Shown piece after piece: positions 8,947 to 55,640 of a stretch of 64,000 bases of DNA. The notes below the pieces were generated by a model that had not been told where the DNA came from, did no database searches, and was given only the letters and a program-made list of their open reading frames with translations. Each line of letters begins with the position of its first letter. The first letter of the stretch is position 1. The stretch is taken from assembly GCA_014359355.1 (NCBI GenBank), contig JACIZP010000177.1, positions 662-64,661 on the forward strand, given 5' to 3'. This stretch comes from Calditrichota bacterium (GTDB lineage Bacteria; Zhuqueibacterota; Zhuqueibacteria; JANLFK01; Oleimicrobiaceae). The position numbers and the translations under genes were made by a program.

Positions 8947-11900
8947 CTACCGCAGTATCGCAAATTTGCCTACCTGGGTTTGCCCATTGGGCGTCTCCAC
9001 CACGTAGAGGTACATGCCGTAGGCCACCTCCTGCTGGTTGAAGCTCAGCATGTTCCAGTAGGTCCAGCTCTGCGTCTCATGCTCGTGGTGAAGGGTATAC
9101 ACCCGCTCTCCGGTAATGGTGTAGATGTGGATGTCGCACTTGTTGGGCAGGTTGGTGAATTGAATCTGCCGCTGGTTGGGGTCAAGCTCCCATTGCGCGG
9201 AGATGATGTACGGATTGGGCACCACGCGCACCTTCTTCAGGTCGGCCTTCTCAGCTTCCCGCACCACATAGCGGCTGGTGTTGAGGCGGAACTTGTCCCG
9301 CTTGCCCACAAAGGGCTTGCCCGAGATGATGCGCAGCACATCGCCAGTCTGCGGGGCCACTCCAGTATCCACCTTCGTGTACACCCACTGCCCATTCACC
9401 AGGGTACTGTCGATGCGCGGAGGCGGAGCCGAAAGCTTGAATGTCCAGGTAAACTTGGCCGGCTTGCCTGTCTCCACCACCTCGCGCAGTTTGAGCTCGT
9501 CACCGCTGGTCCAGGTCGCTTTCATTTGGGGCGTGGTATCCGCTGGGTTTGCGGTGAAGTGACCAAAAGCCGCCTTCTTGTTGAGCGTCAAGTTCCAGAT
9601 CTCAAAAGGCGTAATGTAGGTGGCCGGCTGAAAGGCCGTGTCTGGCTCGCTTACAAACCTAAACTCATAGTCAAAGGGAAAGTCGCCGGCTGGAGTGCCC
9701 GTGACCTGCCAGTTGCAGGGCGACTCCGTGCCGCGCTGCCCCCGGTACCAGTAGGTCGAGTCGGGGTCAAGGCTCACGGTGCTGAAGCGCTCCACCACCG
9801 TGAGCTGCAGGCCATCGAAGATCGGCCCCTCAGCAGAGGCACCCAGTGGACCGTTGTCCACCACCTGCTGACCTGTCGCCTCGTCCAGGACGTCGTAGTA
9901 CTTCACCCCCGGCTTTGCGTCGTCGATGGTAATCAGGTACGAGTGTCCAGTCACCGCGAACTGGTCAAAGATTCTGGCAGTGAGCGTGTTGCCGGTGTAC
10001 GCACCAGGCAGAGCCTCCACTGCGATGGTCGGCGCCACGTAGTTGCTAGGCGTAGGTCCAGGGGTGACCTCCACCAGGTTCGGCGCGGCCTGCGGGTTTA
10101 CCCCTTTGGCGCACTCTAACGAGTTCAGGTCCGCCCACCCGGCTAAAGCTAACGAGTCGCCACGTGCCAGGCTAATGCCCCGGTCGTAGGAGGTCACACT
10201 GTACCAATAAGTGACACCGTTCTTCACGTTGTTGTCCGTCCACGAGTGCACCAGGCCGGTATTGTTGCCGAGGTTGAGGTGCGGGTAGTTGGGGTCAAGG
10301 CCACTCACGTTATCGTTGAGGTCAAATTGCGCCACCGGGATGAACCCCACCGCGTTGCCTAATCCGTCGCGAATGATCTCGCCCCACTGGTTGTTAGTCG
10401 GGTTGGAGGTCGTCCGATAGATACGGTACCCCTGAAAGTCCTTGGCGCCAGTCATCAAGTCGCGGCTCTCCTCGGCGCTGCGGTCCCAGTAGAGGGTCAC
10501 CTTGCCGTCGCCTGGCACCGCCGTGACGCGCGGCGGCGACGGCGGGTCGGCCCCCTGGTAGAACAGCTCGTACATGAACTGCGCATTGCGCGCGTTGAAC
10601 TTGTAGTCTTCGAAATCATCGCCGGCGATCATGCAGAAGCTGAAGGTGGTCGTGTCACCGGCCGGCAGGTCGAACGGCCCTGTGCTCATGATGAACACGC
10701 AGTCTAACCCGGTGGGGAACTTTTCCCTGATCAGCTCCGGCGAATCCAGGTGCGGATTCAGCTTGCCGCTGGGGTCCGGCCAGAAGTAGTTGTCCTGCTG
10801 CTCGATGGACAGGTTCGAGGTGTCGCCGCTCATCAATTTGTACTGCTCCAGCTCCTGCTTGTCCGGGGTCAACACGCCTGGCCGTTGCTCCCAGTTGAAC
10901 CAATGCCAGTCGGTGAGCCCGAGCTGTTGTCCCTCCGGAATATCGATGATCCCGTCCTTGTCCAAGTCCACACCACCCGCGGGAGCCTTCGGCGTCTCCA
11001 GCAGCTTGAGGCCAATATACACCTTCCATGCCGCCGGGTCAGCCACGCCGCTAAAGTCGCCCGTACCCCAACGATAGTCGTAGAAGTAGGCCGTGTTGTA
11101 CCGGTAGGTGGTGTCCTTCTTGGCGTCGTACTCCGAGATCAGGAACCCCATCCAGTCCATGCGGTCGTTGTAGGTAGTGGTGAGGTTGTACTCCGGGAGG
11201 TCCGCATCGATGTAAAAGCCGAAGTAGACTCCCTTGTAATCGTAGCCAATGCCCCGTGGGTCGATCGCCTTGCTATTGTTGATGATCCGGCACGGGAAGA
11301 AGATAAAGTCCTCGGCGTAGGACCTTCCATAGGTGTAGGCAGTCACCTCCACGTCGATGCCAGTGGCATAGCCTTGGTCCACGCGGCCGTCCGCCTCGGC
11401 ATAGCGCTGACCGACGTTGTTGAGGTCATAGTCGTTCATCACGAAAAAGACGTCTTTGTCGGAGGTGAATTTGCCGGGGATGATCTCCCCAGTTTTGGGG
11501 TCCCGCGCCCACGGCCCGGGCCAGATGCGATTGCCACTGGCATCCTTCGGCCAGGAGGCCTCGATTGTGCTGGTGGCGACAATGGGCAGGCCTTTGATGC
11601 TCGACGGCGCATTGGCCATCACGTCGCCCACGGTCACGTCGCCAGAATGAAGCTTGCCGTAGGAGCCGGCCTTGGGGCCCCAGTCTGCGGCCACGTTTCG
11701 CTCCGAAACCGTGGCCCCCATGCTCACCGTGTCACCTTTGACTGGGTCATAGCGCCGCGGTGCCCATGGTCCATCCGGAATGCCCAACATTGGGAAAAGG
11801 TCCGGCACGTAGGACCACCCCTTGTAGAAAAACGCCGGCACCGAGGGTCGGTAGTCCCATGTGGACAGACGGCCGTCGTTAAACACCGCATGCTGCACCT

Positions 11901-12090: not shown

Positions 12091-15000
12091 CTACATCTCC
12101 AGGCGCAGGCCCAGGTCGATGCGCCGCCGCTCGCCGTACCAGTGCGGGTGGTCATACTGCGTGCTGTACGCCGTACGGCTCATGGTCGGGCCGGGATCGG
12201 TCGGGCTGCCGGTCTCCGAATACACGGTGAGCACGTTCTTGCGGTCCAGGATGTTCCACACTCGTGCCACCAACGCGGCGCGCAGACGCCCGAACAGCAC
12301 AAAGTCCCGGCGGAACACCCCATCAAGCGTCATGCGCCACGGTCGCCGCGCGGTGTTAGGCTCCAGCGCCTGGCCGCCCACCGTCGGCGTGTAGGGGTAA
12401 CCACTGGAGCCGCGGAAGATAAACTGCAGCGTCGTGCGCTCAAACGGCCGCACACCAAAGATCTTCGGGCCTTGCCCTCTTCCCAAAGCGTAGCCAGCGT
12501 TGATGTCGATGACGTGGGTCTGATCCCATGGCATCAGGTACTCCTTCTTCGGCCGGTTCTCCTCGGTGTCACTGTCCCAGTACCCGGCCCAGGAGTAATA
12601 CTTGTTCGCCTTGGCCACAGAGTAAGTGTACTCCAAGGTACCGAAGTAGTTGTCACTGAAGCGCTTCTCCAAGCTGATGTCGATTCCCTTGGAGCTGCCA
12701 AAGTCGCTGTTGTGGATAATCGAGTAGCTGTAGAGCCCTAAGCTGTCCGGGTCAAAGCCGGTGATGCGGTAGCTCCCTGGGTCGCCGTTGTTCTCCTTGG
12801 CCCATGCCGCCACGCTCAGCTTCCAATTGTCGCCAATCTGCTGATCCACGCCCAGTTCATAGGCCTCAGTGCGCGCCGCATCCATATTGGCCCAGCCGAA
12901 CAACGGTAGGGGCGAGTTCAGGTTAAGGGTCTGGTTGGTGTACAGGTCCCGGTAGTCCGGCACCTGGAAGAAGTGGCCATAGGCAAAATGGAAGGTGGCC
13001 CGATCGGTGATCGGATGGCCAATGCCCAAACGAGGGCTCCACTGCCACTTCTTCCTCCCCGTCTGCACCTGCGAGGTGGGATCGTTCCAGTTTTCCCACG
13101 CCCGCCCTTTGGAATCGGCAAAGTCGAAGCGGATTCCGGCGTTGACGATGAGGTTTTCGAACTCCATTTTGTCCTGAATGTACGCTGAAATCTCCACGGG
13201 ATGGGTGTGGTAGTACTCCACATACGGGTTGGCAAGGTAGGGGTGCTGGAGTTCCAGGAAGAACAGGCCTCCGGATTCGCCACCTGCCAGCTTGCCAAGT
13301 AGGCTGTTCTTGTCAAAGCCGAAGGTCTTGTACTCGCCGCCAATCTTCACCTGGTGGCTGCGGTGCGCCTGCCAGGTGAGGCTGCCGGAGAGCTCGAAAT
13401 CCTGCTGGAAATTCCGCGTCCAGTACTGCGTAGTGTAACCGTAGTACACGTAGCGCGGCACCTGCACGCCATGTTCGGTGATGGTATCTACCCGGACGAA
13501 GGTAAGGTCGCACGCAAAACCACCGGTGGAAGTCCTGTCCGGGTATTCCTGTGGGGTCACCGGCCATTCGCGGGCGATCTGCTGGCGCCGGGCCTCGATC
13601 TCCGCATCGGTGGGCTTGCGACCGTTTTCCTTCTCGAACTGCTCGATCCACGTCTCGAGAAATGCATCCCTGAAGAGCTCCGAGTGGCCTGCGGTCAACT
13701 CGTGGCCATCCGGACCATACACGCGATAGCGGCGATGCTTCCAGAAACGTGAGCCGCGCAGCTCGTAAAAGAGCTTGGGGCTCACCTGGTGCGTCCAGAT
13801 CAGACCTTGCTGCTCAGTCTGGTCGGTGACGATGTGGATGCCCTGCTCGGCAAAGCGCCAGAAGTCGTCGAAGTAGCGGAACCGCCGCTGCGTCTGCCGG
13901 TGGGTGTAGACCAACTTCATGCTGGGGTTGATCCGCCAGGAGAGCTTGCCGGCAAAGTCATAGTCGGAGTTGAAGCCAAAAGCCATCCAGCCGGCAGTGT
14001 CGTCCCAACGAATCAGGTCGTTGATGCCGTCACCTTCGCCTGCGTCCTTGGTGTTCGGCTTGCGGTCCTCTCCCCAGTCGGCTTTCCAGGACCACGCCTT
14101 CCGCCAGGCGCCGGTGGCCCAGTGCCGCATCACATCGCCGACGTAGCGGTAGGTGCTGTTGTTGCGCAACTTGTTGATGTCGGTTACTTCCGTGATGATC
14201 CCTGCGTCGATCTGCTCCTGGATCTTCTTGTAGCGAGGATCCTCGGGATGGTCCAGGAGCCAATTGAGCGGTGTCGGGTCGTAAGTGTACTGGTCGTACT
14301 CCAGCACCGTGTACTTGCGGTAGCCCTGTGAGCCAGAAAGGAAGAAGCTCAGTCCCTTAACAAACGGCACCGGGCCGCCAAAGGAGCCGATGACCTGGTG
14401 GGCGTTGCGCAGGTCGTCGCTCTTGGAGCCCAGCCAGCCCGCCACCTCGCCGCTGGTCACCTCCGCCATGCCGGAGTAGTAGTCGCGCCCCTCTTTGGTG
14501 ACGATGTTGACCACCGCCGATTGCGCCTCGCCGTACTCCGCGTCAAAGTTGCCGGTGATGACCGTCAGCTCATCGATGGCCTCCCGGTTGACCGTGGTCC
14601 CCATGCCGGCGTAGATGGCATCTTCCACGTACATCCCGTCCACCATGTAGGCGATCTGGCCACTTCTGCCGCCGCGCACGTGGGTTTGGTCAAGGCCGCG
14701 CGCCTCAAAGCCGGCGATCTTGTTCTGGTAGCCTTCCATGACGGTGATACCCGACTGCAGGGTCATGATGTCCTGCACCGAGCGCACGGGCATGTTGGTG
14801 ATCATCTCCGCCGTGACCGTGGTGCGCTTGGTGGTGACCGAAGGCTCGATGAGCGGCCGCTCTGCTGTCACCTCCACGGCCTTGCCCAAGTCGATCACCG
14901 TGGGGCTGAGCTCAAAGTTGATCTTAGTGGTCAGGTCAACGCTCACCCGCACACCGGTAACCGTCTCCCGCTGATAGCCGATCATGGAAGCCGTTACCCG

Positions 15001-25319: not shown

Positions 25320-26993
25320 CTACAACTTCCCCGACCGCAGTATGGCCACCACTAACCACACCCCCAGCAGGCCGGCAAATGCATAGCCCACGATCCCCAG
25401 GACCGAAATACCCAGCAGCGACGGCCCCACATGCGCCGCGATAATCATGGAGGAAGCAACGATGAGCGCAGCGATGATCAGGCTGAAGGAGAGCCGGTTA
25501 GAGGAACGGTCAATCTCCCGAATGAGGTTCTCCAACCCTTGATGCCTAAGCTCGGCGCCGATCTTTCCGGCGCTCACACGTCGCAGCAGCACCTCCATTT
25601 CGTGGGGCAAGGTCAAGGCGAGCTGGTACAGGTCGCGCAGGCCTCTTCCCAGCTGATAGGCAACCCGTCCCGGTTCGAACTGCCGCCACATGAGCTTGCG
25701 CGCATAGGGACCGATGGCCGCCGCAAAGGAAAAGTCGGGGTCCAGCTTCTCGGCAATGTCCTCGTAGGAGCCCAAGGTCTTGCCCAAGAGCATCAAGTTG
25801 GAGGGGACGCGCAGCCGGTGCCGCGCCAAAACCGCAACGGCATCGTCGAGTACCGCCTTCATCCGCAATTTGCCCAAGTTGACGCCGTAGTAGCGGTCGA
25901 TGAACTCGCCGATGTCCAGGCGCAGCAGCCGCTCGTCGCTGCCCTGGGGCACAATCCCCATCTGGGCCATGACGCGCAGGATGAGGCTCACGTCGCGCCG
26001 GGTCACCCCCACCAGAAGGTCCGCGAACAGAGCAAGCATCTGGTCGTCCAGCCGACCCATGATGCCAAAGTCCACCGGGGCGATCGTCCCATCTCTGCGC
26101 ACCAGCAGGTTGCCAGGGTGCGGATCGGCGTGGAAGAAGCCGTCTTCAAAAACCTGCTTCAGGACAAAGTCGGTGCCGCGCCGCACCAAGGCCTTCAGGT
26201 CGACGCCCATGGCGCGGAGACTCTCCACGTCGGAGATCTTTACTCCCTCCACATACTCCAGCGTCAGCACCCGGGACGTCGTCAGCTCCCAAAACACGGC
26301 CGGCACATGTACTCCCGGGAGTGTGGCGCAGTTGCGGGCGAAGAGCTCCACATTGCGCGCCTCGCTCATAAAGTCCAACTCGCGCCTGGTGGTCCTGGCC
26401 AACTCCTCCACCATCCCCACCGGGTCGAACTGGTGGCTCTCCGGGACATGCCGTTCGATGAGGCGCGCCAAGTCCAAGAGGATCTCCATATCCACTTCGA
26501 TGAGCTCGCCGATGCGCGGTCGCTGGATTTTGACCACCACTTCCTGTCCATCCACGGTGCGGGCACGATGCACCTGGGCAATAGATGCCGATGCCAGCGG
26601 CTCGTTGTCGATGGAAGCGAACCGCGCGAGAGCCGGTTCCTGGAGCTCCTGGTGCAGTGTCTGCTCCAGAACAGAAAACGGCTCCGGCCGCACCTGATCC
26701 TGGAGGAGGGCAAGCTCGGCAAGAAGGTCGGCAGGCACCAGGAACGACCGCGTGCTGAGCACCTGGCCAAGTTTCACGAACGTGGGGCCAAGCTCCTCCA
26801 AGGCCATGCGAATGCGCCTGGCGGTGGTAACGCCTTCCACCCCACGCCGCACGCGCGCAAGTCGCCGCCCCAAGTGCAAGTAGGCAGCCAGGTCCAGCCT
26901 TTCCGCCAGGTCAGCGAACCCGTACTTGATGAGCACCATGGCGATCTGGCGGTAGCGCTTGAGGTGGCGATATCGCCGGTGAATCGTTAGCAC
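25320..26993 (-). CDS. ubiB: UbiB/ABC1 (AarF) atypical kinase family protein
   Basis: 'EELGPTFVKLGQVLSTRSFLVPADL' ABC1-family signature; two C-terminal TM helices; GTG start with AAGGAG RBS placed at 26993 (ORF track extends further to 27095). Confidence 0.8.
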   Translation of the reverse strand: MLTIHRRYRHLKRYRQIAMVLIKYGFADLAERLDLAAYLHLGRRLARVRRGVEGVTTARRIRMALEELGPTFVKLGQVLSTRSFLVPADLLAELALLQDQVRPEPFSVLEQTLHQELQEPALARFASIDNEPLASASIAQVHRARTVDGQEVVVKIQRPRIGELIEVDMEILLDLARLIERHVPESHQFDPVGMVEELARTTRRELDFMSEARNVELFARNCATLPGVHVPAVFWELTTSRVLTLEYVEGVKISDVESLRAMGVDLKALVRRGTDFVLKQVFEDGFFHADPHPGNLLVRRDGTIAPVDFGIMGRLDDQMLALFADLLVGVTRRDVSLILRVMAQMGIVPQGSDERLLRLDIGEFIDRYYGVNLGKLRMKAVLDDAVAVLARHRLRVPSNLMLLGKTLGSYEDIAEKLDPDFSFAAAIGPYARKLMWRQFEPGRVAYQLGRGLRDLYQLALTLPHEMEVLLRRVSAGKIGAELRHQGLENLIREIDRSSNRLSFSLIIAALIVASSMIIAAHVGPSLLGISVLGIVGYAFAGLLGVWLVVAILRSGKL

Positions 26994-27066: not shown

Positions 27067-27111
27067 AATTTAACAAACGCCCGACCAAAAATCAACGCGT
27101 TTGTGGGTGGC
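27067..27111. repeat. Intergenic motif copy A (AATTTAACAAAC...AAAAATCAACGCGTTTGTGGGTGGC)
   Basis: Near-identical to copy B at 44694-44729 (AATTTAGCAAAA AAAAATCAAGACGTTTGTGAGGGTGGC); both lie in divergent promoter regions. Confidence 0.5.
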
Positions 27112-27423
27112 CGGCATCCGGTCAGACCGTCTCATTTCTAACACACTGTGTCACCGTGTCGCAACGCCTGCGCTTCTCCTGCACCACGGCGCGAAACGGA
27201 AACGATGGAGCCAAACAACGATGGGCCGGAAGATGCTGTTGTCTCGTGACTTAGCTTACCAAGAGCAACATTGGGTGTCCCGGCGCTTCCAAAATCGGGC
27301 GCCGAGGCGGTTTCGGGCATGGCATTACTTTTGCGGGCTGTCTGGCGTAACGAGTGGGCCTTCCGCGGCGAGGGCGCGTCCCTTGTAGTGAGTGTCCAGG
27401 CCCACAAGTTGTTCAAAAAGTGC

Positions 27424-27451
27424 TTGCTTTTGTGAATTCAATTGCTAATTT
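27424..27451 (+). promoter_or_regulatory. Candidate sigma70-like promoter (TTGCTT-16-TAATTT) for the giant surface-protein gene
   Basis: AT-rich island ~80 nt upstream of ATG 27536. Confidence 0.3.
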
Positions 27452-27535
27452 TACACGCTGTGAAGCGGGTGGGATGAACGGTATCGGTCGTCACTCTCTG
27501 CTTCAGGGGCACAACCATAAGCAGTGGAGGCTGAG

Positions 27536-30500
27536 ATGGCAGCGAAACGGATACAGGCCAGCACGCTGATCGGAGTTGGTCTCCTCCTGTTCTATACGAC
27601 AGCGGCGGTTGCACAACAGGGCTCCATAGGTAACAGGGCTACCGCCGACCCCGCGTACACCGGGTATGCAGCTTGGATCAAGCTGACCGTGGCGGGGCCC
27701 GCAGGGAACAATTCTCTCAACGACAACTTTGCCGGTGCGAAGGTCGAGATTGACCTGAATATCGACGGCGACAACAATGAAGCCACCAACCCTGGCGACG
27801 TGTACGAAGCCAGTGGCGACGCCGGAGAAATGGTGACTGACCCGCTTGGCTCCGGCGGCGCCTTTGACCAGTACTTCTACGTGCGCATCAAATCCGGCGC
27901 GAACAACCCGTTCCCGGATGGAGTAGGTTACGACACCGACCTCCGTCCGCGCGTGAAATTTGCCGCCAGCGGGTTTCTGCGTGTGGGTGGGGTGCCGATA
28001 CAGACCGAGACCGGCTTTGTGAACGCCACCGACGACATCACCCCCAGGATGCGCAAAATCGAGCACTATGACGACGGTACAGGTCATATGCCCGGTTCTC
28101 CTGGCAATCAGGTGCAGTACGACGGCTACATTGACAAGATCATCATCGAGTGGAGCGAGCCCATGCGCACCAGCAATGTGGCCGCCAGCACAGCCATCTT
28201 CGGTGGCCTCGGCTCCTCGGTGAGCAGCATTGAAGCTACCGGTGCGTGGGCCGACAACAAGCATTTTGTCATGTGGCCCGTGTCCATTTCGCCGAACTCC
28301 GGCATCACCCCAACCCTGTCCTATTACCCCCCACCCAGCAACAGCGACAAATTTGCCAGCGCAACTTTGCAGTACGCCGAGACGCATGCCAAGGTGGTGA
28401 CCGACCGCTCCGGCCCGGCGATTGTCAGCGCGCAGACCAAGCGCGCCACCCGGCGCCAGGCCTTGGCTGCAGCGCTCGCGGCCAAGCGCATCCGCGTGGT
28501 CTTTAGCGAGCCGGTGGCCTTCAACTACATCCAGGGTACTGACTTTACCGTGACCATCAACGGCGTCAACAACCCGGTGGCCAGCATCGTCTCGCCCACC
28601 ACCGCAAACCCACCGACCAATACGTACGAATTCGCCCTGACCAACGACTTTGTCCACGAGGATGTGACCGGAAGCATCTCCTACACGGGGACGATGCTGG
28701 TGCGCGACGTCAGCCCCGACAGCAACTACAACGGCGTGGGGCCCACAAGGACAATCACCGACGGTATTCTCCCCAACATTGTCTCCGTGCGTACCGTTGA
28801 CGGTCTCTCGGCCACCAATGCTGGCGCCAATGGCTGGGGTTACTTGGACTGGGTGGAGGTCACCTTTGACCACACTTACAACGGCATGGACCAGGCCCGC
28901 CTCAGCACTTTGGGCTTCACCGTCACTGGCACCGGTATATTGACCATTGGCGCCACCGGCAGTTGGGCCAGCGCCACCACGTTCCGCATTCCTTTGGTGG
29001 CCACTTCCCCGAAGGTGCCTAATACTGACCTTGTGCCCACGGTGACCTATGTCAACCCGGGGTCGACTACCGGTTTGCGGAGCGCCGTCAACAACGGGTT
29101 GGCCGAGAACTTGCTGGCAACCGATGTGACACCATCCTCGGAAAATGCCTCGCCCGTGCAGATTATCGACGGTGCCGGCCCAGCCCTCATCGAAGCTTAC
29201 ACTGCTGGTGGCAACAGAATCAGGCTCACGTTCAGTGAGAAGGTCAACACGGCCGGTTGGCCCACCACCGAACCGGCCGCCCAGGTGCCTTCCCGCTTCA
29301 AGTGGTTCGTCGGCCTGCGGAACTTTAGTGCGGCCGGAACCAAGGTCTTTTTCACCGGGCTCTCTGGCACCAATCAGGACAATGTCATCTACCTGAACAG
29401 CACCGGGGCCACCTGGACAAAGACCGATAGCGGCTTCGTCAACTTTTATGGGACCAACGTCGTCTACGACGTCGCCACCCCTGCTAACGGGAACCTGCAG
29501 TGGGACGACGACGGCTCCATAGTCGGCTTCACCGGGACCACTTCCGACGTCAAAGTGAAACGTGACAACATCGCCCCTATCCTCCTTGGTTTGTACACGC
29601 AGGACTTTGACGCCGACGGGACGTTAGATCACTACCGCTTCGTGTTCGATCCTCTGTCTCCCATCTTCCCGAAGACGTCGTTCAAGGCGGCAAACTGGAC
29701 GATTGCAGGCTATGACGGACCGAAGTCGGGCATCAGCCTGAACATGAACGTCTACAATCCGGCACACGCGCAGTACAAACCCACGGCCATCAACACCTTT
29801 GGCGATACGGTGGAGGCATACATCTCGTTCAACGAGACTACGGCTGGTGGCCCACCTGCCACCCCGTATGGCGGTGACACAGGGGATGTGCCGGACGTAA
29901 TTGTAGAAGCTGGAAAGGGCTTCGCGGACTGGGCCGACAATGTGATGGCCGCCTTGGGCGAGGGCCTCTCCTTGGAGAGCGATAAGGCTGGCCCGGCCAT
30001 CATGAGCGCCAAGACCATCTCTACAACCACCGTGGAAATCCTCATGAGTGAAAAGGTCCAGGGACTGGACTTGGCCGACTTTGACCTCACCATGGGTTTT
30101 GTCCCGCCGCTGGCCTCGGTGACCCAACCCAGCGACGCTCGTGTGCTGCTGACCGTCGCCCCTTACGCCCAGTGGGCACCCACGCAGACGGGCACCGTTC
30201 GCCTGACCGGGGTCAACAAGATCTATGACGATATCGCCGGCACTAACAACGGCAACATGCAGACTGCCTCCATCGCCGTGATCGATGCCACGGCCAGTTA
30301 CTTCATAGTCAGCCAAGTCTACAAGGAGGGGTCGCAGTTCACCGGTGTGCCGTTTGACATCAAAGTTATCGCCAAGGATTCCCACGGTACCACTGACGTG
30401 AACTTTACGGTACCCATCCAGTTCGCTGCCAACAAGCAGCGGGTGACCCTCCCGACCGGCGTGCAACGCCTGACCAACGGCGAAGGGGTGTTCCAGATCG

Positions 30501-31981
30501 TCTGCTATGACACTACCTCGAACTTGGTGATTACGGTCTACAAGACCACCGATCCCGGGGTGAACGGCTCAACTGAGCCAATAGAGGTGGTGGAAGCGGT
30601 GATCGACGCACCCAACACGCTCACCGTGAAGGACTACAAGGGTGCCGACGGCGAGGGGGACCAGGGTGGTTATGTGACGCTGGTCTGGGACTTTTCGCAG
30701 AACCATCCTGGCATCGGTACGGTCAACATTATCGACTACTACCAGATCTACCGCGTGGTCGAGGGCAAGCTCTTCCATTGGGGCACCGTGCAAGCGACTG
30801 ACCCGCGAAAGAGCGAGGCGGACTCGGTGCGCGTGGTGGTGCCCACCTATGACAATGTGATCTCGGACTTTTACGTGCAGGCTGTCAAGAATCCTCCCCC
30901 GCTCACGGCTGCGGCCCCGCTCTTGCCTGATGAGGACGCCATCCCGCTGCCGGCGGGGTACGTGTTTGCCATGCCGCCGAAGGGCGACAATGGCGAGGTG
31001 ACTGTCGCTGCCGCCATGACTGCTGGGCAGTTGGTGTCGCCGCTCACCAAGGGCACGGGTGGCGCCACTGACGACATCCCGCCGGCAGCCATCACCGAGG
31101 CGGCTATTCGCAAGATTAGTGCGCAGGCGAAGCTGTTCTGGCCAAAGGTCACCAAGGGCATCGATGGCTCGCCGGAGCGTTCGCGGATTACCTATCGCGT
31201 GTATGCGCACCCCAGCAATGCCTTCTTTAACGTTGGAGACCCGGACGCGGTACTTCTGGGTAGCTGCGCAGATACCTTCTTGGTGGTGAACGTCGATGCC
31301 TTGCGGCGGTTCTACATGGTGGTGGCCATGGACGACAACAACATGTCCGGCCCCTCCAACCGCGTCGGCCATTACGGCTTTGCCTTGAACAAAGGCGAGA
31401 CGCGCAAATACACGCACATCTCGCTGCCGCTGATCGATCCGAACATCACCGACGCCAAGTCATTAGCCGCCAGCATCGGCGGTGTGGCTGCGGTGTACAA
31501 GTTGGACCCAGCGACCAACGCCTACACCACGTACTGGCTGCCAGATATGGGTTTGGGCACCAACTTCCCCATCACCCCTGGCATGGCCTGCTTGGTCAAC
31601 CTGAAGAGCGACGCACCCAGCACCTGGTTCATGGTGGGGTCGGTGCCGTACCCAGGCAGCGTTCGTTTCACGCTGGCCAAGACCAAGACGCGTACCTACA
31701 ATGAGATCAGCGTGCCGCTTGACCGTCTGACCCTGACCAACGCCGCACAGCTGGCCGCCAGCATTGGCGGCGTGGAGGCGCTCTACCGGATCGACCCGGC
31801 TACCAACGCCTTCACGCAGTATTGGCTCGTGGCTCAGGGCTTGGGCACGAATTTCCCCTTGAACCCAGGCGAACCGGTGCTCCTGTTGGTGAACCAGTCG
31901 GCTCCCAATCAGTGGCCGGCAGGCAGCATGACCGCTGCGCTCCCTGTGGGCGAACAGCCTGCGGGCGCAAAGGAAGAATGA
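27536..31981 (+). CDS. Giant secreted surface protein (1481 aa) with Ig-like/beta-rich repeats and C-terminal tandem ~90-aa repeat
   Basis: GGAGG RBS 6 nt before ATG 27536; signal peptide (LIGVGLLLFYTTAAVAQQ); Thr/Gly/Asn-rich beta-strand composition; last ~190 aa contain two copies of ISLPLxxxxLTxAxxLAASIGGVxAxYxxDPATNAxTxYWLxxxGLGTNFPxxPG; no T9SS CTD. Confidence 0.6.
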   Translation: MAAKRIQASTLIGVGLLLFYTTAAVAQQGSIGNRATADPAYTGYAAWIKLTVAGPAGNNSLNDNFAGAKVEIDLNIDGDNNEATNPGDVYEASGDAGEMVTDPLGSGGAFDQYFYVRIKSGANNPFPDGVGYDTDLRPRVKFAASGFLRVGGVPIQTETGFVNATDDITPRMRKIEHYDDGTGHMPGSPGNQVQYDGYIDKIIIEWSEPMRTSNVAASTAIFGGLGSSVSSIEATGAWADNKHFVMWPVSISPNSGITPTLSYYPPPSNSDKFASATLQYAETHAKVVTDRSGPAIVSAQTKRATRRQALAAALAAKRIRVVFSEPVAFNYIQGTDFTVTINGVNNPVASIVSPTTANPPTNTYEFALTNDFVHEDVTGSISYTGTMLVRDVSPDSNYNGVGPTRTITDGILPNIVSVRTVDGLSATNAGANGWGYLDWVEVTFDHTYNGMDQARLSTLGFTVTGTGILTIGATGSWASATTFRIPLVATSPKVPNTDLVPTVTYVNPGSTTGLRSAVNNGLAENLLATDVTPSSENASPVQIIDGAGPALIEAYTAGGNRIRLTFSEKVNTAGWPTTEPAAQVPSRFKWFVGLRNFSAAGTKVFFTGLSGTNQDNVIYLNSTGATWTKTDSGFVNFYGTNVVYDVATPANGNLQWDDDGSIVGFTGTTSDVKVKRDNIAPILLGLYTQDFDADGTLDHYRFVFDPLSPIFPKTSFKAANWTIAGYDGPKSGISLNMNVYNPAHAQYKPTAINTFGDTVEAYISFNETTAGGPPATPYGGDTGDVPDVIVEAGKGFADWADNVMAALGEGLSLESDKAGPAIMSAKTISTTTVEILMSEKVQGLDLADFDLTMGFVPPLASVTQPSDARVLLTVAPYAQWAPTQTGTVRLTGVNKIYDDIAGTNNGNMQTASIAVIDATASYFIVSQVYKEGSQFTGVPFDIKVIAKDSHGTTDVNFTVPIQFAANKQRVTLPTGVQRLTNGEGVFQIVCYDTTSNLVITVYKTTDPGVNGSTEPIEVVEAVIDAPNTLTVKDYKGADGEGDQGGYVTLVWDFSQNHPGIGTVNIIDYYQIYRVVEGKLFHWGTVQATDPRKSEADSVRVVVPTYDNVISDFYVQAVKNPPPLTAAAPLLPDEDAIPLPAGYVFAMPPKGDNGEVTVAAAMTAGQLVSPLTKGTGGATDDIPPAAITEAAIRKISAQAKLFWPKVTKGIDGSPERSRITYRVYAHPSNAFFNVGDPDAVLLGSCADTFLVVNVDALRRFYMVVAMDDNNMSGPSNRVGHYGFALNKGETRKYTHISLPLIDPNITDAKSLAASIGGVAAVYKLDPATNAYTTYWLPDMGLGTNFPITPGMACLVNLKSDAPSTWFMVGSVPYPGSVRFTLAKTKTRTYNEISVPLDRLTLTNAAQLAASIGGVEALYRIDPATNAFTQYWLVAQGLGTNFPLNPGEPVLLLVNQSAPNQWPAGSMTAALPVGEQPAGAKEE

Positions 31982-40336: not shown

Positions 40337-40365
40337 TTGACACTTCTCATATTATTTGCTATAAT
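40337..40365 (+). promoter_or_regulatory. Perfect-consensus sigma70 promoter TTGACA-17-TATAAT
   Basis: TTGACA 40337-40342, 17-nt spacer, TATAAT 40360-40365, in AT-rich island 80 nt upstream of BFN-nuclease ATG. Confidence 0.6.
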
Positions 40366-44014: not shown

Positions 44015-44415
44015 TCACTTTTTCTCGTAGGCGTGATGGGCGCGCGAAAAGTGCTCATGCACGACCTTCCACTGGCCGTCGCGCTTGGCGTACACGTGCG
44101 TGCCCCGTCCCTCGATGACCCGCGGCTTGCCCTTCTTGTGCAGCGTCACGGTCCAGTAGAAGCTGACCACCGCCACATCGCCGAGCACCTGCACCTGCGG
44201 CTGGAGGATCTTAAAGTCCACCTTGTCCGCCTGCGTGAGGTAGTACTCGATGGTCTGCCGCAGGGCGCGCAGGCCCTTCAGGCGCGCATGGCGTGTCGAA
44301 GAGAAACCGACGAGTTCCGAGTCAAAGTGCGCCAAAATGGCCTTCACGTCGCCCTGGTTGAAGGCCTTGGCCTGCGCCTTCTCCAGGTCCACCAACGTCT
44401 TCTTGAGGTCTTCCA
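44015..44415 (-). CDS. NTF2-like/SnoaL-like (DUF4440) small protein
   Basis: 133 aa from MEDLKK (AGGAGG RBS); cone-shaped alpha+beta fold pattern. Confidence 0.5.
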
Positions 44416-44693
44416 TGTGCGTTCTCCTCCTGCGCTGGTTTGCAGGCACAAAGGGCCACCGCATGCCGTGCCGCCGCGGAAGCATGCGGTCCCTCTGCGA
44501 TTATCCACATCCCCAGCACGTCGTCAGCGGCCACTCGGCCTTTCGCGCCCTCCGCTACAACGGGGAACGCCGAGTAGGCTTCACTGCGGCCTGCTTGGTC
44601 GCTGCATCCGCCTCACTTCTCGGTCCTTTGGGCAAAGGACCCTTCGACCAAAAGCCCGCCGCGCCATACCGGCATGAAGCTGCCGCTGTCAAT

Positions 44694-44729
44694 ATTGAGC
44701 AAAATTTAGCAAAAAATCAAGACGTTTGT
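44694..44729. repeat. Intergenic motif copy B (AATTTAGCAAAAAAATCAAGACGTTTGTGAGGGTGGC)
   Basis: Matches copy A at 27067-27111; an inverted partial copy TTGCTAAATTTGC sits at 44943-44955 just upstream of the GT9 start. Confidence 0.5.
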
Positions 44730-44975
44730 GAGGGTGGCAAGAAGCACGGGGCTGCTCAGAGCCGAGGGCCCAGCGCGTGGACGGTATGCATGGCACGCCA
44801 GAGGCGTGCGCACCCAGGGCGACACCAATGACGGGCCGGGAGGCCCGCGCACCCCGGGCGCACCCAAGACCACTTCTATTCCCGAGAGGCCGATTGAAGA
44901 AAGGATGTGGCGCCATTTTCCCCTTTGTTTTTGCCTATGGGGTTGCTAAATTTGCCACACCAGCTTTGGAGGGCT

Positions 44976-46172
44976 ATGGCAAGTCTGTTCGACACATTGC
45001 ACCGCCTTCTGCGGCGGCCGCAGATTCACGACGCGCAGCGCAAGGCGAAGGTGCTGCTCTTCCGCGGCCTGCGCAGCTTCTTCCCGGTGTCCACCATGAG
45101 CGTACAGGAGATCGGCCATCTGCGGCGCATCCTCGTGGTGCGCCAGCACAATCAGCTCGGCGACATGCTGTGCGCCACACCGACTTTTCGCCTCCTGCGC
45201 CAGGCTTACCCACACGCGGAAATCACCCTCATCACCAGTCCGGCCAACTACCCGGCGGTGCAGAACAGCATCCGCCTGGACCGCGTGCTGGTGTTCGACA
45301 AGATCGGCTTTGCCAAGCAGCCCCGTCGCTACTGGCACTTTTTGCGCACGCTGCGTTCCCTGCGGCCAGACGTGGCCATTGTCCTGTCCACGGTCTCCAT
45401 GTCGGTGACCTCGGACGTGCTCGCCTATTTGTCGCGCGCCCGCTATCGTCTCGGTCCGGCTGCGATCGACGGGGTGCCCAACACCACGGGCTTTCTCTTC
45501 AACGTGCCGGTCACGCTCAATTGGCGCGAGCAGCCGCATCGCCACCAGGCTTTGCGCAACATGGACATGCTCGGCCCCCTGGGCCTGAGCAGCACCGACC
45601 TGCAGGCGGAGCTCTTCCCCACCGCGGATGAGCAAGCGCGGGCGGCAGAGCTCCTGGCGCGCTTGGGCGCAGTGGTCAAGGTAGGAATTCACCCTGGGGC
45701 GGGCAAGCCGGCAAACCGCTGGCCGGCAGCTCATTTTGCGGCGTTGGCCAATACCTTGGCGCAGCAGTTCGGTGCCCACATCATCGTCTCCGCCGGCCCA
45801 GATGACGGGCAAGTGCTTGCGGAGCTCTTGCCTGCGCTGCAGGCGCCCCACACGTTGTGCCTGAATCGTCCGCTCGGCGAGCTTGCCGCCATCATCGCTG
45901 GCCTGGACGTGATGGTCACCAACGACACCGGGGTCATGCACGTGGCCGGCACGACCCGGGTGCCGCTCATCTCGCTGTTTGGCGCCACGGATCCGGAGCA
46001 ATGGGCTCCCTCGCGGCCCGGAAGCTACTACCTGCAGCGGCCGCGGTTGAGCGACATCAGCGTGGAGGAGGTGGTGGCCCTTGTGAGCAGACTGCTGAGG
46101 GAAACCCAACGCCCGGGAGCGTCTCCCAGGCGCGGGCGCAGGCGCAAGGCGAAAAGGGCCGTGGCCGGCTGA
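44976..46172 (+). CDS. Glycosyltransferase family 9 (ADP-heptose:LPS heptosyltransferase-like)
   Basis: 'RILVVRQHNQLGDMLCATPTFRLLRQAYPHAEITLI' GT9 N-terminal signature and C-terminal 'MVTNDTGVMHVAG'. Confidence 0.75.
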   Translation: MASLFDTLHRLLRRPQIHDAQRKAKVLLFRGLRSFFPVSTMSVQEIGHLRRILVVRQHNQLGDMLCATPTFRLLRQAYPHAEITLITSPANYPAVQNSIRLDRVLVFDKIGFAKQPRRYWHFLRTLRSLRPDVAIVLSTVSMSVTSDVLAYLSRARYRLGPAAIDGVPNTTGFLFNVPVTLNWREQPHRHQALRNMDMLGPLGLSSTDLQAELFPTADEQARAAELLARLGAVVKVGIHPGAGKPANRWPAAHFAALANTLAQQFGAHIIVSAGPDDGQVLAELLPALQAPHTLCLNRPLGELAAIIAGLDVMVTNDTGVMHVAGTTRVPLISLFGATDPEQWAPSRPGSYYLQRPRLSDISVEEVVALVSRLLRETQRPGASPRRGRRRKAKRAVAG

Positions 46173-46303
46173 CCTGGTCGAGGCGGGGGCTGAACCTCGG
46201 GGAGCTTGTCGGAGGCTGGAGTGACGGCCCAATGGGGCTCATGGAGCTGGTTGGGTGAACTTTCGCGTGGGGAGTTACGACTTACTGAAGACAACGGAGG
46301 CAG

Positions 46304-50070: not shown

Positions 50071-53000
50071 CTACAGTCGGCCAGCCAGAACCACCGTGGC
50101 TCTGGCGGTTTCCACGGTACCGGCTGCGGCGTTGAGCGCTTCCAGGTAGACGATGTACACCCCGATACGTGCCTGCTGGCCATGATCGTCCCTGCCGTCC
50201 CACACCACCGCATTGGAGGCGGCCACCGGCTGGTTGCTCGCTAAGAAGCGAATGAGGCGGCCGGTGACATCGTAGATCTTGACGTTCACGGCAGCCGTGG
50301 TCATCGGCAAGGCGAACGAGATGACGGCAAAGTCGTCGCGCCCGTCGCCATCTGGCGAAAAGGGCGAGGGCGAGACGCTGAGCGTGGTGCGCGGCGGTAC
50401 CACCATGGTGAGGACGCTGTTGGCACGGCCTGGCGTCCCCCCGGTCTTGTCCACGCACGAGCTCCAATTGGACTTCAGCTGCGAAGGCAGGCTTGGGTTG
50501 ATTCTTTCGAGCGAGACGCCCGTATCTCCGCCCCAGCTCTGGTCGTAGGCCACACTGTCGATGACCGTGCCCTGGGGGTCGTAAACGACCACGGCGTCGC
50601 CAGTCGCGGAGAGCGCAGGCCATGAGGGTACTACCAGCAGCAGACTTTCGCCGAGCTCGCCCGCCTTTGCTAAGGAAGAGTCTTCGGCAAGCAGCACAAA
50701 GCCGCCGGGCGGCACGAGCAAGAGATTGCTGCTCACCACCCGGCGCTTGGCCAGGTCCGCATCGGAGAAGAGCCACTTCTCCAAGTTTACTGCCGCCTCG
50801 CTGCGATTGTACAGCTCCACCCACTCGCCCATGCCGCTGAGCGGCGCGTACATGATCTCGTTGACCACCAGCGTCCCCCTGGCAAAGCCCACCATCAGTT
50901 CAGCCACGGCGATGTTGTTGGCCGGCCTCATGTCGCCTGCACAGGTCACCAGCACGCCGATCCACATGACGCCAGCCGGGGCTTCGCGCCATTCCACCTC
51001 CACCGACCGGCACTCATCAGGGGCCAGTTGTGCTATGTCGACCGGTTCCCCCAGTCGCTCGCCCGGCGCAAATACCGTATCCCGGTTGGCGTCCCAGAAG
51101 AACTCCACCCGCACGTGCTCGGCGGGCGCCCGACCTTCGTTGCACACCTGGGCCTGAAGCCGCACGCTTTCGCCAACACGAGGTTGCTCGGGGAGGAAGG
51201 AAAGCCCGGCACCAGCCACACCAACGTCCACCGTCAAGGGGCTCACGCTGTTTTCTGTCCCAGGGGTGGCTCCTTCGGGGGCAGTGCTCAGCCGCCAGTT
51301 GGCGCTGTCCTGCGAGCCCCACTCGTAGCGCACCCGCTCCAGGGAAACGCCAGTGCGCATCCCCCAGCGAGAAAAGTAGTGCACGCTGTCCACCACCACG
51401 CCCGCGGGGTCGTACACCCGCACCTCATCCTGGTCATTGTTGAGCGCGGCCCACCCCTGCTTCACTGTCAGCAGGGGCGCAGGAAGCTGGCCGTACTGGA
51501 AGCGCACTACAGAATCGGCGGCGACCACCGCAAAACCACCCACTGGCACGCGCACGTGGGTGGTGCCGAAAAGCCGCGGACCGGAAGTGGCATCGCCCAG
51601 TCCCCAGCCGTAAAGGTCCACCTCGCTAGGTCCGGCATTGTAGAGCTCAACCCACTCACTCTGCCCGGAGAAGGGTGCGTACATAATCTCATTGACCAGC
51701 ACCTGCCCCACGGGAAAGGCCACCACCAATTCCGCGAAACGGCGGTCATTGTCCGGCCGCTGGTCATTTGGGCAGCTCGCCGCCACTGCGATGCTGTGCA
51801 CTCCTGGCGGCACTCCTTCCCAGCGGAAGAGCAAGGTCTGCTTCGCGCCACTGGCCAACTCGCCCACCACCTGTGGCGCATCCAGCCGTTCCGCAGCCGT
51901 CAGCACGGAGTCGCCGTCTGCGTCCCAGTAGCAGCTCACCTCCACGCCGGCCACCGCCTGGCGGCCTACATTGCGCACTGCCGCAGCGATCGTCACCGAT
52001 CCCTGCGCACGAGGCACAAACGGCGCCCACTGAATCGACCCCGCCACCACCTCGACGTCCACCGCCAGGGGACTCACGCTGTTCTCCAGGCCTGGCGTTC
52101 CGCCGCGTGCGTTCACCGCAGCACGCCAATTGCTGGGCAGGTTGGACGGCTCTTCCGCGCGCACCCGTTCCAGGGACACGCCTGTTCGCACCGGCCCCCA
52201 AGAAGCAGCATAAGCCACGCTGTCGATGGTTGCCCCTGTCAGATCGCGAACAACCACCAGGTCGGCGTCGTTGTTGAGGGTCGGCCATTTGCTGCCGATC
52301 GTCAGCAACAGGCCGCCAAATTCCGGAAAGTCCCTCTTCATCGTCGTGTCTTTGGCCACGACCAGGTACCCGCCTGGCGGTACCACGATGTGGCGGTCGG
52401 TGAGGCGCACCAGTGTTCCGACGTTCTCGTCGCTCACCGTCCAGTCATAGACGTCCACACCGCTGTCACGAGGGTTGAATAGTTCTATCCACTCGCACGC
52501 GCCGGACTGGGGTTGGAACATGATCTCATTGATGATGAGGTCTCCGCTCTGGAAAGGCACGCGATACTCCCCGTACGCCATGTCGTCGGAGGTGTCAGGA
52601 TCCGCCACCTCAACCAGTCGAGCAATGATGCGGCTGAGCCCAGGGGCAGCGGCTCCCAGCTCGACGCTGCACAGCAAAGAGTCGCCGCCTGCCAGGCCCG
52701 CCAAGGGACAGGAGAGGCCCACCAGCTCCTGCGCGCCGGGCTTGAGGTCATAGTCCGCGTCGCGATAGAAGGCGACCATGCCGCTCTCCGCCGTATCCAT
52801 GCCGTGATTGTAGACCCACACCGAGGCGCGGACCGTTTGCCCATAGCGAGGCTGTGGCGGCTCAAACTGCACCCCGGCAGAACCAAGTCCAACATGCTTG
52901 TCGCGCGGACGGATGCTATTCGGGGCATTGGGCGTACCGCCCAACGGCGCCCGGCAGGGACCCCAGTTCTTGCGACTGTTGGTTGGCCAGTCTGGCCTCA

Positions 53001-54312
53001 CCCGCTCTATGGACACGCCCGTCTCGCCACCCCAAGAGGCGAAGTAGTACAGGCTGTCCACCGAAAAGCCTGCGGCATCCCAAATCACCACTGCATCGCT
53101 GGTGTTGTTAAGAGCAGGCCAGCCCCGTCCCGGCACAAACACCGGGCCGGACAAAGTGGGAAAGAGCGCCCGAACCAGGGTGTCCTCTGCGAGCAGGGCG
53201 AAGCCGCCAGGAGGGAGGAGCGCCTTTGTGCTGGTGACCGTAACTCGTGTAGCAGTGCGGGAATCGCTTAGCGACCACAGCCGCAGGTCGATCACCTCCG
53301 GGCTGCGGTTTAGGATCTCCACCCACTCGGGCTCCCCTGCACTTGGCCGGTACATGACTTCGTTGACCACCACCTCGCCGGGCCACACGCCGACGCCAAG
53401 GGTCACCCTCTGCTGGTCGTTCTCCGCGGAGCTGTCGCCTTCGCCCACCACCCGCGCAAGTAGCTGGTGCACTCCAGCCGGCACCTCATGCCAGGTGAAC
53501 CGTGCCACCGCACTGTCGCCTGGCTGCAGAGAGGGGCTGACAAACGGCGCTTCCAGGAGTTCCTCTTCCCTGCCGAAACCGTCCTCGTCGCGATCCAAGT
53601 ACAGGGCAATCTGGCAGCTGGCGATTTCCTTGCGGCCGGCGTTCAGCGCGACCACCGTAAGCTGAACGCTCTGGCCGCGTCGGACACGAGACGGCGACCA
53701 GACCACGCTCTTGAGCGCCAGGTCTATGGCTCCCGCGCTCACGCTGTTGGGCGCGCCAGGCGTACCCCCGAGCACCCGGCTGTTCGCCCAGTTGGCAGGT
53801 GCGTCGCCGGCTTCGAGATCGATCTTCTCGTCAGAGTACCCCTGAGGGTTGTCCAGGGTGTAGCGATAGCGGCTCACCGTGTCGCCCCTGGCGTTGGTGA
53901 GAATCACCGGTTCGGGAATGGTGTTTGACCACCCGCCGCTGCCAAAGGCGCCGTCGTCAATTTTCACAATCAATGCTTCGGCAGGGATGACGCCGTCGTA
54001 GGTGGTGGAGTTGCCGAAGTAGCTGCCGTCGAGGATGACGGCGAACTGCCGCGGCCGGAGGATGAGCCCCCACCCTGCGTCGATAATCTTGTCCAACTCG
54101 ATGCTGTCGCCAACGGCCCAACCGGCGAGGTTCACAGAATCCGTCGCACTGAGGTTGAATATTTCCACGTACTCGTCGTGGGCCTCGTTGGTGGCGGGAT
54201 CGAACATGACCTCTGACACGGTCACCTGCCCCAGGCTGCGACCTGGGCTTGCGGCCAAGATAAGGAAGGCTCCAATAACGAAGAAGCGGCGATAAAACTT
54301 TGACTCAGCCAC
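50071..54312 (-). CDS. Giant secreted protein with five lamin-tail domains (LTD) alternating with CARDB/Ig-like domains and C-terminal FlgD-Ig-like domain
   Basis: GTG start 54312 with purine-rich RBS (ORF track extends upstream into purA region); signal peptide; five repeats of NE(I/V)M(F/Y)xPxxGxxEW(I/V)ELxN...D(L/V)xxWxLxD...PPGG(F/Y)xV...ALNNxxDxVxxxDxxGxxxDSVxY...WG...GVSLERV; C-terminal 'PFSPDGDGRDD...VKIYDVTGRLIR' FlgD-Ig-like. Confidence 0.7.
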   Translation of the reverse strand: MAESKFYRRFFVIGAFLILAASPGRSLGQVTVSEVMFDPATNEAHDEYVEIFNLSATDSVNLAGWAVGDSIELDKIIDAGWGLILRPRQFAVILDGSYFGNSTTYDGVIPAEALIVKIDDGAFGSGGWSNTIPEPVILTNARGDTVSRYRYTLDNPQGYSDEKIDLEAGDAPANWANSRVLGGTPGAPNSVSAGAIDLALKSVVWSPSRVRRGQSVQLTVVALNAGRKEIASCQIALYLDRDEDGFGREEELLEAPFVSPSLQPGDSAVARFTWHEVPAGVHQLLARVVGEGDSSAENDQQRVTLGVGVWPGEVVVNEVMYRPSAGEPEWVEILNRSPEVIDLRLWSLSDSRTATRVTVTSTKALLPPGGFALLAEDTLVRALFPTLSGPVFVPGRGWPALNNTSDAVVIWDAAGFSVDSLYYFASWGGETGVSIERVRPDWPTNSRKNWGPCRAPLGGTPNAPNSIRPRDKHVGLGSAGVQFEPPQPRYGQTVRASVWVYNHGMDTAESGMVAFYRDADYDLKPGAQELVGLSCPLAGLAGGDSLLCSVELGAAAPGLSRIIARLVEVADPDTSDDMAYGEYRVPFQSGDLIINEIMFQPQSGACEWIELFNPRDSGVDVYDWTVSDENVGTLVRLTDRHIVVPPGGYLVVAKDTTMKRDFPEFGGLLLTIGSKWPTLNNDADLVVVRDLTGATIDSVAYAASWGPVRTGVSLERVRAEEPSNLPSNWRAAVNARGGTPGLENSVSPLAVDVEVVAGSIQWAPFVPRAQGSVTIAAAVRNVGRQAVAGVEVSCYWDADGDSVLTAAERLDAPQVVGELASGAKQTLLFRWEGVPPGVHSIAVAASCPNDQRPDNDRRFAELVVAFPVGQVLVNEIMYAPFSGQSEWVELYNAGPSEVDLYGWGLGDATSGPRLFGTTHVRVPVGGFAVVAADSVVRFQYGQLPAPLLTVKQGWAALNNDQDEVRVYDPAGVVVDSVHYFSRWGMRTGVSLERVRYEWGSQDSANWRLSTAPEGATPGTENSVSPLTVDVGVAGAGLSFLPEQPRVGESVRLQAQVCNEGRAPAEHVRVEFFWDANRDTVFAPGERLGEPVDIAQLAPDECRSVEVEWREAPAGVMWIGVLVTCAGDMRPANNIAVAELMVGFARGTLVVNEIMYAPLSGMGEWVELYNRSEAAVNLEKWLFSDADLAKRRVVSSNLLLVPPGGFVLLAEDSSLAKAGELGESLLLVVPSWPALSATGDAVVVYDPQGTVIDSVAYDQSWGGDTGVSLERINPSLPSQLKSNWSSCVDKTGGTPGRANSVLTMVVPPRTTLSVSPSPFSPDGDGRDDFAVISFALPMTTAAVNVKIYDVTGRLIRFLASNQPVAASNAVVWDGRDDHGQQARIGVYIVYLEALNAAAGTVETARATVVLAGRL

Positions 54313-54365
54313 TGCCCTTCTCCCCGCTCGTGCTGAACGGTAGCTGGTCTGTAGCGATGATGCGA

Positions 54366-55640
<1,275 letters not shown>

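Follow-up and report, generated by a model that had tools for sequence, protein, structure and literature searches.

Gene content and shared sequence of two divergent intergenic regions

The window, by which we mean the whole 64,000-nucleotide stretch of DNA that was analysed, lies on a contig of a MAG that carries the label Calditrichaeota/Calditrichota; the label of its nearest relatives is candidate division KSB1, now Ca. Zhuqueibacterota, of the FCB group. Two intergenic regions, 530 and 560 nt in length, each contain a copy of a short sequence, here called copy A and copy B. The first separates ubiB (UbiB/ABC1; 25320–26993, minus strand), whose GTG start follows an AAGGAG ribosome-binding site, from a surface protein gene on the plus strand (27524–31981) specifying a 1485-aa product with no Pfam domain. 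The second lies between a SnoaL/DUF4440 (NTF2-like) gene (44015–44417, minus strand), the first gene of an operon that also encodes an M28 peptidase and uroporphyrinogen decarboxylase (URO-D, hemE), and a plus-strand gene (44978–46172) for GT9, a family-9 glycosyltransferase (heptosyltransferase), the ATG start of which was confirmed by a 100% database match. Homology and domain annotation of the flanking genes agrees with the neighbourhood proposed for both copies in the initial annotation. Exact-sequence look-up of the UbiB and NTF2-like proteins of the window returned no match, and homologs were taken from a homology search.

The window holds two very large genes of ~1480 aa, at 27524–31981 and 50071–54513. 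Orthologs of the former have no Pfam match and the next gene encodes a Por_Secre_tail (T9SS-signal) protein, while LTD, CARDB and FlgD_ig domains are present in orthologs of the latter.

Copy A occupies 27067–27111 (AATTTAACAAACGCCCGACCAAAAATCAACGCGTTTGTGGGTGGC, plus strand) and copy B 44703–44738 (AATTTAGCAAAAAATCAAGACGTTTGTGAGGGTGGC, plus strand). The similarity that had been described between them exists, although copy B had been placed at 44694–44729, a shift of ~9 nt. The exact identities comprise AATTTA.CAAA, then, following a 9-nt gap in B, AAAAATCAA, and after two mismatches CGTTTGTG, a 2-nt indel and GGTGGC; this last indel had been given as a single nucleotide. A common origin of A and B by duplication or gene conversion was considered and rejected since the likeness ends at GGGTGGC and the flanks are unrelated.

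A degenerate 19-mer (AAAAATCAASRCGTTTGTG) finds only two sites in the window, even at three mismatches. The expectation of 0.03 matches from this test was discarded as circular, the pattern having been built from the two copies, and for that reason an all-pairs Monte Carlo analysis was used in its place. Every pair among the window's 18 intergenic regions (4.9 kb in all) was compared on both strands, with dinucleotide-preserving shuffles as the control. The A–B pair is the best-scoring intergenic pair by a narrow margin (21 versus 20, 20 and 19), and shuffled intergenic sets equalled or beat the observed best pair in 76% of trials with +1/-1 scoring and in 48% with +1/-2. Tested alone by shuffling, A against B gives p ~0.02. 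The similarity is thus real, yet by itself it is not above chance over all intergenic pairs.

A third copy was found neither in the 64-kb window nor in ~150 kb of related loci, where only orthologous sites occur. A scan of genome contigs with CACAAACGNNTTGATTTTT gave at least 120 matches, and each of the matches listed was a single match in an unrelated taxon, apart from the orthologous ubiB locus L015. Scanning metagenomes with CCACCCN{0,2}ACAAACNNNTTGATTTTT gave one unrelated match, inside a coding region (L132), and did not recover the known JGI ortholog of L005.

Predicted promoters upstream of ubiB and the NTF2-like/M28/hemE operon

Both copies had been read on the plus strand; their features make sense on the minus strand, directed towards ubiB and the NTF2-like operon respectively. 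A plus-strand promoter was rejected for either copy, no usable -10 being found at the right spacing.

For locus A the ubiB/giant-protein intergenic region was retrieved from L001, L002, L004 and L015 and aligned with the window (five-genome alignments A1 and A3). UbiB identity across the five genomes of this locus is 80–100%, with L001, L002 and L004 at 80–92%. On the ubiB strand AAACGCG-TTGATT-TTTG, GTTTG and TAAATTA (AAACGCGTTGATTTTTG included) are invariant in the five genomes, and variation is seen in the central 8 nt of the spacer and past TAAATTA, as expected of a promoter with a -35 TTGATT, an extended -10 TGyTAAATT and a spacer of 17 nt. The predicted ubiB promoter (27067..27105, minus strand) is supported by its sequence, by a match to TTGNNN-N16-18-TANNNT and by this footprint. 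It consists, all on the minus strand, of an A-tract CACAAACG (27105..27098), the -35 TTGATT (27095..27090) followed by the 17-nt spacer, the TGt of the extended -10 (27075..27073) and the -10 TAAATT (27072..27067). The end of the -10 and the ubiB GTG at 26993 are 73 nt apart, and the predicted start, at ~27060, is ~67 nt ahead of that codon. Upstream of a more distant KSB1 ubiB (L133; 55% identity) TTGACA-N16-TAAATT is present at a similar distance. A built-in scan for consensus promoters called neither A nor B; A has 8 of 12 hexamer matches, the threshold being 9.

The GGTGGC tail of copy A (27106..27111; GCCACC on the minus strand) is unconstrained. Though GGGTGGC had been counted as a conserved part of the motif, its complement GCCACCC reads GCCAGCT in L002 and TCCGCAC in L004 at this locus.

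Directly upstream of the ubiB promoter the five genomes also share an invariant 45-nt block (27119..27163), on either side of which they diverge. Its sequence on the ubiB strand is TGCGACAnGGTGACACAGTGTGTTnGAAwTGAGACGnnCTGACCG (pattern GGTGACACAGTGTGTT), which includes the palindrome ACACAgTGTGT and repeats of TGnGAC/TGAC. The window has a single instance of it and the fetched loci have it at the orthologous site alone; locus B lacks it. Neither an Rfam nor a structure signal was obtained for it. This block, which lies outside the repeated motif, may bind a regulator of the two divergent promoters, those of ubiB and of the surface protein gene.

The corresponding comparison at locus B used the NTF2-like/GT9 region from L005, L007, L009 and L010 (five-genome alignment A2). 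Besides the GT9 promoter, the sole block common to the five genomes is, on the plus strand, CAATATTGAGCAAAATTyrGsAAAAAAkCAA, which on the minus strand (TTGATTTTTTGCCGAATTTTGCTCAATATTG) corresponds to TTGATT-N17-CAATAT(TG). This conserved block identifies a predicted promoter for the NTF2-like/M28/hemE operon (44692..44730, minus strand), with the A-tract CACAAACG at 44730..44723, the -35 TTGATT at 44720..44715, a 17-nt spacer, the -10-like CAATAT(TG) at 44697..44692 and a predicted start at ~44685. Its -35 and spacing fit those of a sigma-70 promoter, whereas the -10 CAATAT lacks the usual first T. The distance from the -10 to the NTF2-like start codon is 65–67 nt in L007 and L010, 113 nt in L009, and 275 and 307 nt in the window and L005.

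These alignments divide the string AATTTA(A/G)CAAA, which had been taken as common to both copies, into parts of different standing: at A it is the ubiB -10, and at B it falls in the promoter spacer. There TGCTAAATT (44703..44711, minus strand), the former AATTTAGCA, fits the extended -10 consensus in this genome only, AATTTAGCA being a 2-nt change private to it; the relatives have CGAATT, CGATTT or TGAATT. TTGATT and TAAATT as a single promoter at copy B were rejected, lying only 6 nt apart. The tail of copy B (GAGGGTGGC; 44731..44738, minus strand) is upstream of the promoter and lineage-specific, common only to L005; the sequence that takes its place in L007, L009 and L010 is rich in A/T (GGAAAATG or AAAAAAAA, plus strand). 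CGTTTGTG and CGTTTGTGAGGGTGGC are likewise kept at locus B only in L005, the closest relative. The placing of both copies in divergent promoter regions, and the view of them as functional sequence, hold. Each core is kept at the orthologous position in five genomes.

The leader between promoter B and the operon (44418–44691) represents a lineage-specific gain of ~200 nt in the window and L005 (275–307 nt, against 65–113 nt in L007, L009 and L010). This stretch includes another promoter-like sequence, CTGACG-16-GATAAT (44527..44500, minus strand), nearer the operon than B, and a weak terminator-like hairpin (44674..44657).

Other putative promoters of the window and their common grammar

Upstream of GT9 we predict a plus-strand promoter at 44925..44952, TTGTTT-N16-TAAATT, which can also be written TTTG-N19-TAAATTTG and matches TTGNNN-N16-18-TANNNT. 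Its TTGCTAAATTTGCC is invariant in five genomes and lies 23–26 nt ahead of the GT9 ATG. An inverted partial copy of the motif (TTGCTAAATTTGC) had been reported 240 nt from copy B; it is present at that position (44943–44955, plus strand), where it forms the extended -10 of the predicted promoter of GT9. The predicted promoter of the 1485-aa surface protein gene (27424..27451, plus strand) has TTGCTT-N16-(TGc)TAATTT preceded by CAAAAAGTGC, is conserved in five genomes and matches the same pattern. In addition a textbook promoter with a perfect TTGACA-17-TGcTATAAT stands at 40337–40365 (plus strand) before the BFN-domain/UVR gene (40428). It is conserved in L005, L007, L009 and L010, and its presence indicates that canonical and Bacteroidota-like -10 forms coexist in this lineage.

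TTGNNN-N16-18-TANNNT occurs in the window at 1.52/kb in intergenic and 0.27/kb in coding DNA, a 5.6-fold enrichment, and seven of its eight intergenic matches face the adjacent gene; the textbook promoter at 40337–40365 is among the matches. TTGNTAAWTT has four sites in the 64 kb, all within the two divergent regions, one per strand and each facing its gene, and in the relatives TGnTAwwwT is found almost solely at orthologous promoter sites. Locally, the -35 region tends towards TTGaTTTT and the -10 region towards TTGCTAAATT, with a spacer of 16–17 nt.

When eight predicted promoters were aligned on the -35, counting positions upstream of it, A or T was found at -9, -7, -6 and -5 in 8/8, 8/8, 8/8 and 7/8 respectively, compared with 2/8 at -4 to -1. 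Over -8 to -5 the count is 27/32 (binomial p ~9e-8), a value to be read with the columns having been picked after inspection and the promoters being themselves predictions. The eight tracts are cacaaacgcg, cacaaacgtc, caaaaagtgc, caaaaagggc, ctgaaaatcc, attttcccct, ctttttccgt and aacttttctc. Since an A/T tract lies 5–9 nt upstream of the -35 in all eight, CACAAACG is one variant of a general UP-element-like tract. In their likeness upstream of the -35 the giant-protein and BFN promoters (9/10 and 13/20) surpass A and B (8/10 and 10/20).

In one form of sigma-70 (RpoD) promoter the -10 is extended (TGnTATAAT) and an UP-element-like A-tract occupies the proximal position. With this form the predicted promoters of the window share TTGnnn, a 16–17-nt spacer, TGn-TAnnnT and an A/T tract upstream of the -35, and they point at the gene from 25–70 nt before the start codon. 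They differ in the preference for TTGaTTTT and TTGCTAAATT, and at B in having CAATAT for TAnnnT. The forms seen in the window agree with RpoD consensus sequences published for the FCB group: for Bacteroides this is -33 TTTG and -7 TAnnTTTG, Flavobacterium has TTG-N17-23-TAnnTTTG, and for Chlorobaculum the form is TA[ATC][ATC][AT]T (PMC2483708; bioRxiv 10.1101/172254). The GT9 promoter, TTTG-N19-TAAATTTG, is an exact match to the Bacteroidota/FCB form (PMC2483708; bioRxiv 10.1101/172254), and the remaining promoters of the window fit TTG...TAwwwT(T). The -10 regions of ubiB (TAAATTAA) and of B (CAATATTG) match TAnnTTTG in part, and a canonical TTGACA/TATAAT promoter is present in the window as well. 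No experimentally mapped promoter from KSB1/Calditrichota was found in the literature searched.

Interpretation of the shared sequence

Taking together the architecture, orientation, gene distances, conservation footprints and intergenic enrichment, all of which were observed directly, we consider it highly probable that A and B are the cores of two independent housekeeping sigma-70/RpoD-type promoters, predicted for the minus strand and serving ubiB and the NTF2-like/M28/hemE operon. What counts against a promoter reading is that the 8-mer CACAAACG is identical and at the same offset in both, which exceeds the general A-tract rule, and that the sister genome retains it at both loci (in L001, and with one mismatch in L005). 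The position of B also counts against it, 275–307 nt from the gene in the window and L005 with the CTGACG-16-GATAAT site nearer, as do the missing first T in the -10 of B and the failure of the consensus scan to call either promoter.

A site for a shared regulator had been among the explanations first offered, and in its most specific form CACAAACGnnTTGATT would be a transcription-factor operator, for example of a class II activator overlapping the -35, co-regulating ubiB and the hemE operon in this sub-lineage. The identical 8-mer and 9-mer at the same offset, the retention of the likeness at both sister-genome loci (CACAAACGCG in L001, CACAAACCTC in L005) and the p of ~0.02 for the A–B pair alone are in its favour, and supply of quinone (ubiB) and haem (hemE) would make a plausible pair for co-regulation. 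The element is, however, missing at locus B in L007, L009 and L010, where CATTTTCCTA or TTTTTTCTG is found, so that at this locus CACAAACG is present only in the window and L005. Neither dyad nor direct-repeat symmetry is common to A and B, AACGCGTT being palindromic at A only, and equally similar A-tracts (CAAAAAGkGC) precede the giant-protein and BFN genes. With the likeness not exceeding chance over all intergenic pairs, a third copy missing from both the window and the related loci, and GCCACCC varying at A in L002 and L004, we regard an operator as unlikely. The simplest reader of the common bases (TTGATT, TGnTAAATT and the A-tract) is RNA polymerase, and the parts that do not belong to the general promoter grammar, GGGTGGC and, at B, CGTTTGTG, are not conserved across relatives. 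An FNR/CRP-like dyad, ATCAA-N4-TTTGT, was rejected, its half-sites being in the wrong order and the dyad not being shared by B. The composite CACAAAC-N3-TTGATTTTT is kept at both loci in the sub-lineage of the window and L005. That a dedicated activator or alternative sigma factor might act on it in this MAG and GCA_024655945.1, coupling ubiB with the hemE operon and with the 27119–27163 block as an extra regulatory input, strikes us as a rather improbable proposition.

It is very improbable that the motif is the start of a plus-strand small RNA or a cis-regulatory RNA, a small RNA 5' end having been another early suggestion. Its appeal lies in the length of both intergenic regions (530 and 560 nt) and in the plus-strand sequence just past the motif at A (27119–27163), which is invariant in five genomes. 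Neither copy, however, has a plus-strand promoter upstream or a terminator downstream, and at B the downstream plus-strand sequence is unconserved, the total intergenic length ranging from 272 to 801 nt. Nothing reached the gathering score in Rfam, and what appeared at E<=5 was noise (isrK, 17.7 bits against a threshold of 50; Vax2os1, 12.3 against 55). Folding is no more stable than that of shuffled sequences (z = +0.42 and +2.42), and compensatory change was seen in none of 24 predicted pairs. Membership of a family of miniature mobile or REP-like repeats, also raised in the initial annotation, is the least credible proposal and can be set aside almost entirely, although there are two similar copies, both intergenic, and the sister genome has a genuine palindromic intergenic repeat (AACCTCCSGGAGGTT) with eight copies in 21 kb. 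The motif is like REP and MITE repeats in its short length and intergenic position and in having more than one copy. It is, by contrast, without palindromic or terminal-repeat structure: neither copy has terminal inverted repeats or target duplications, and a repeat finder reports no such family. Its two copies in 64 kb are not joined by any elsewhere in the related loci, and their cores are fixed at orthologous positions in all relatives examined, with no presence/absence polymorphism. Every part of the motif has a positional role in a promoter, and AACCTCCSGGAGGTT is unrelated to it in sequence.

The palindrome AACCTCCSGGAGGTT (15 nt) represents a REP-like family. Its eight exact copies lie in three intergenic regions within 21 kb of GCA_024655945.1 (L005), at 9605–9619, 9797–9811, 9861–9875, 11221–11235, 11284–11298, 14233–14247, 14296–14310 and 14360–14374, and explain part of the greater length of intergenic regions in the sister genome. 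The window has a single degenerate copy with two mismatches (46193–46207), just after GT9, where L005 has two.

Under the preferred explanation, that of two separate housekeeping promoters, the RNA polymerase holoenzyme would read the -35 TTGATT and the T-run that follows it, and then, 17 nt downstream, the -10, which is TGtTAAATT at A and CAATATTG at B. The alpha subunits would probably contact the A-tract (CACAAAC) 5–9 nt upstream of the -35; its role as an UP-like element is proposed from sequence and presumes action by the alpha C-terminal domain. Transcription would begin at the predicted sites. A and B would then resemble each other because the promoters of this lineage are all built from the same short modules, the resemblance having been enlarged by chance matches in the non-conserved flanks (GGGTGGC) and by the private 2-nt change which gives the spacer of B the appearance of a -10 (AATTTAGCA).

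As a finding, two unannotated but conventional promoters matter little. AT-rich short look-alikes in GC-rich intergenic DNA should be tested as promoters first. A modest by-product is a consistent sequence-based promoter grammar for an uncultivated FCB lineage (KSB1 / Ca. Zhuqueibacterota or Calditrichota), and this grammar (A/T tract, TTGaTTTT, 16–17-nt spacer, TTGCTAAATT) could aid the annotation of transcription units in these MAGs.
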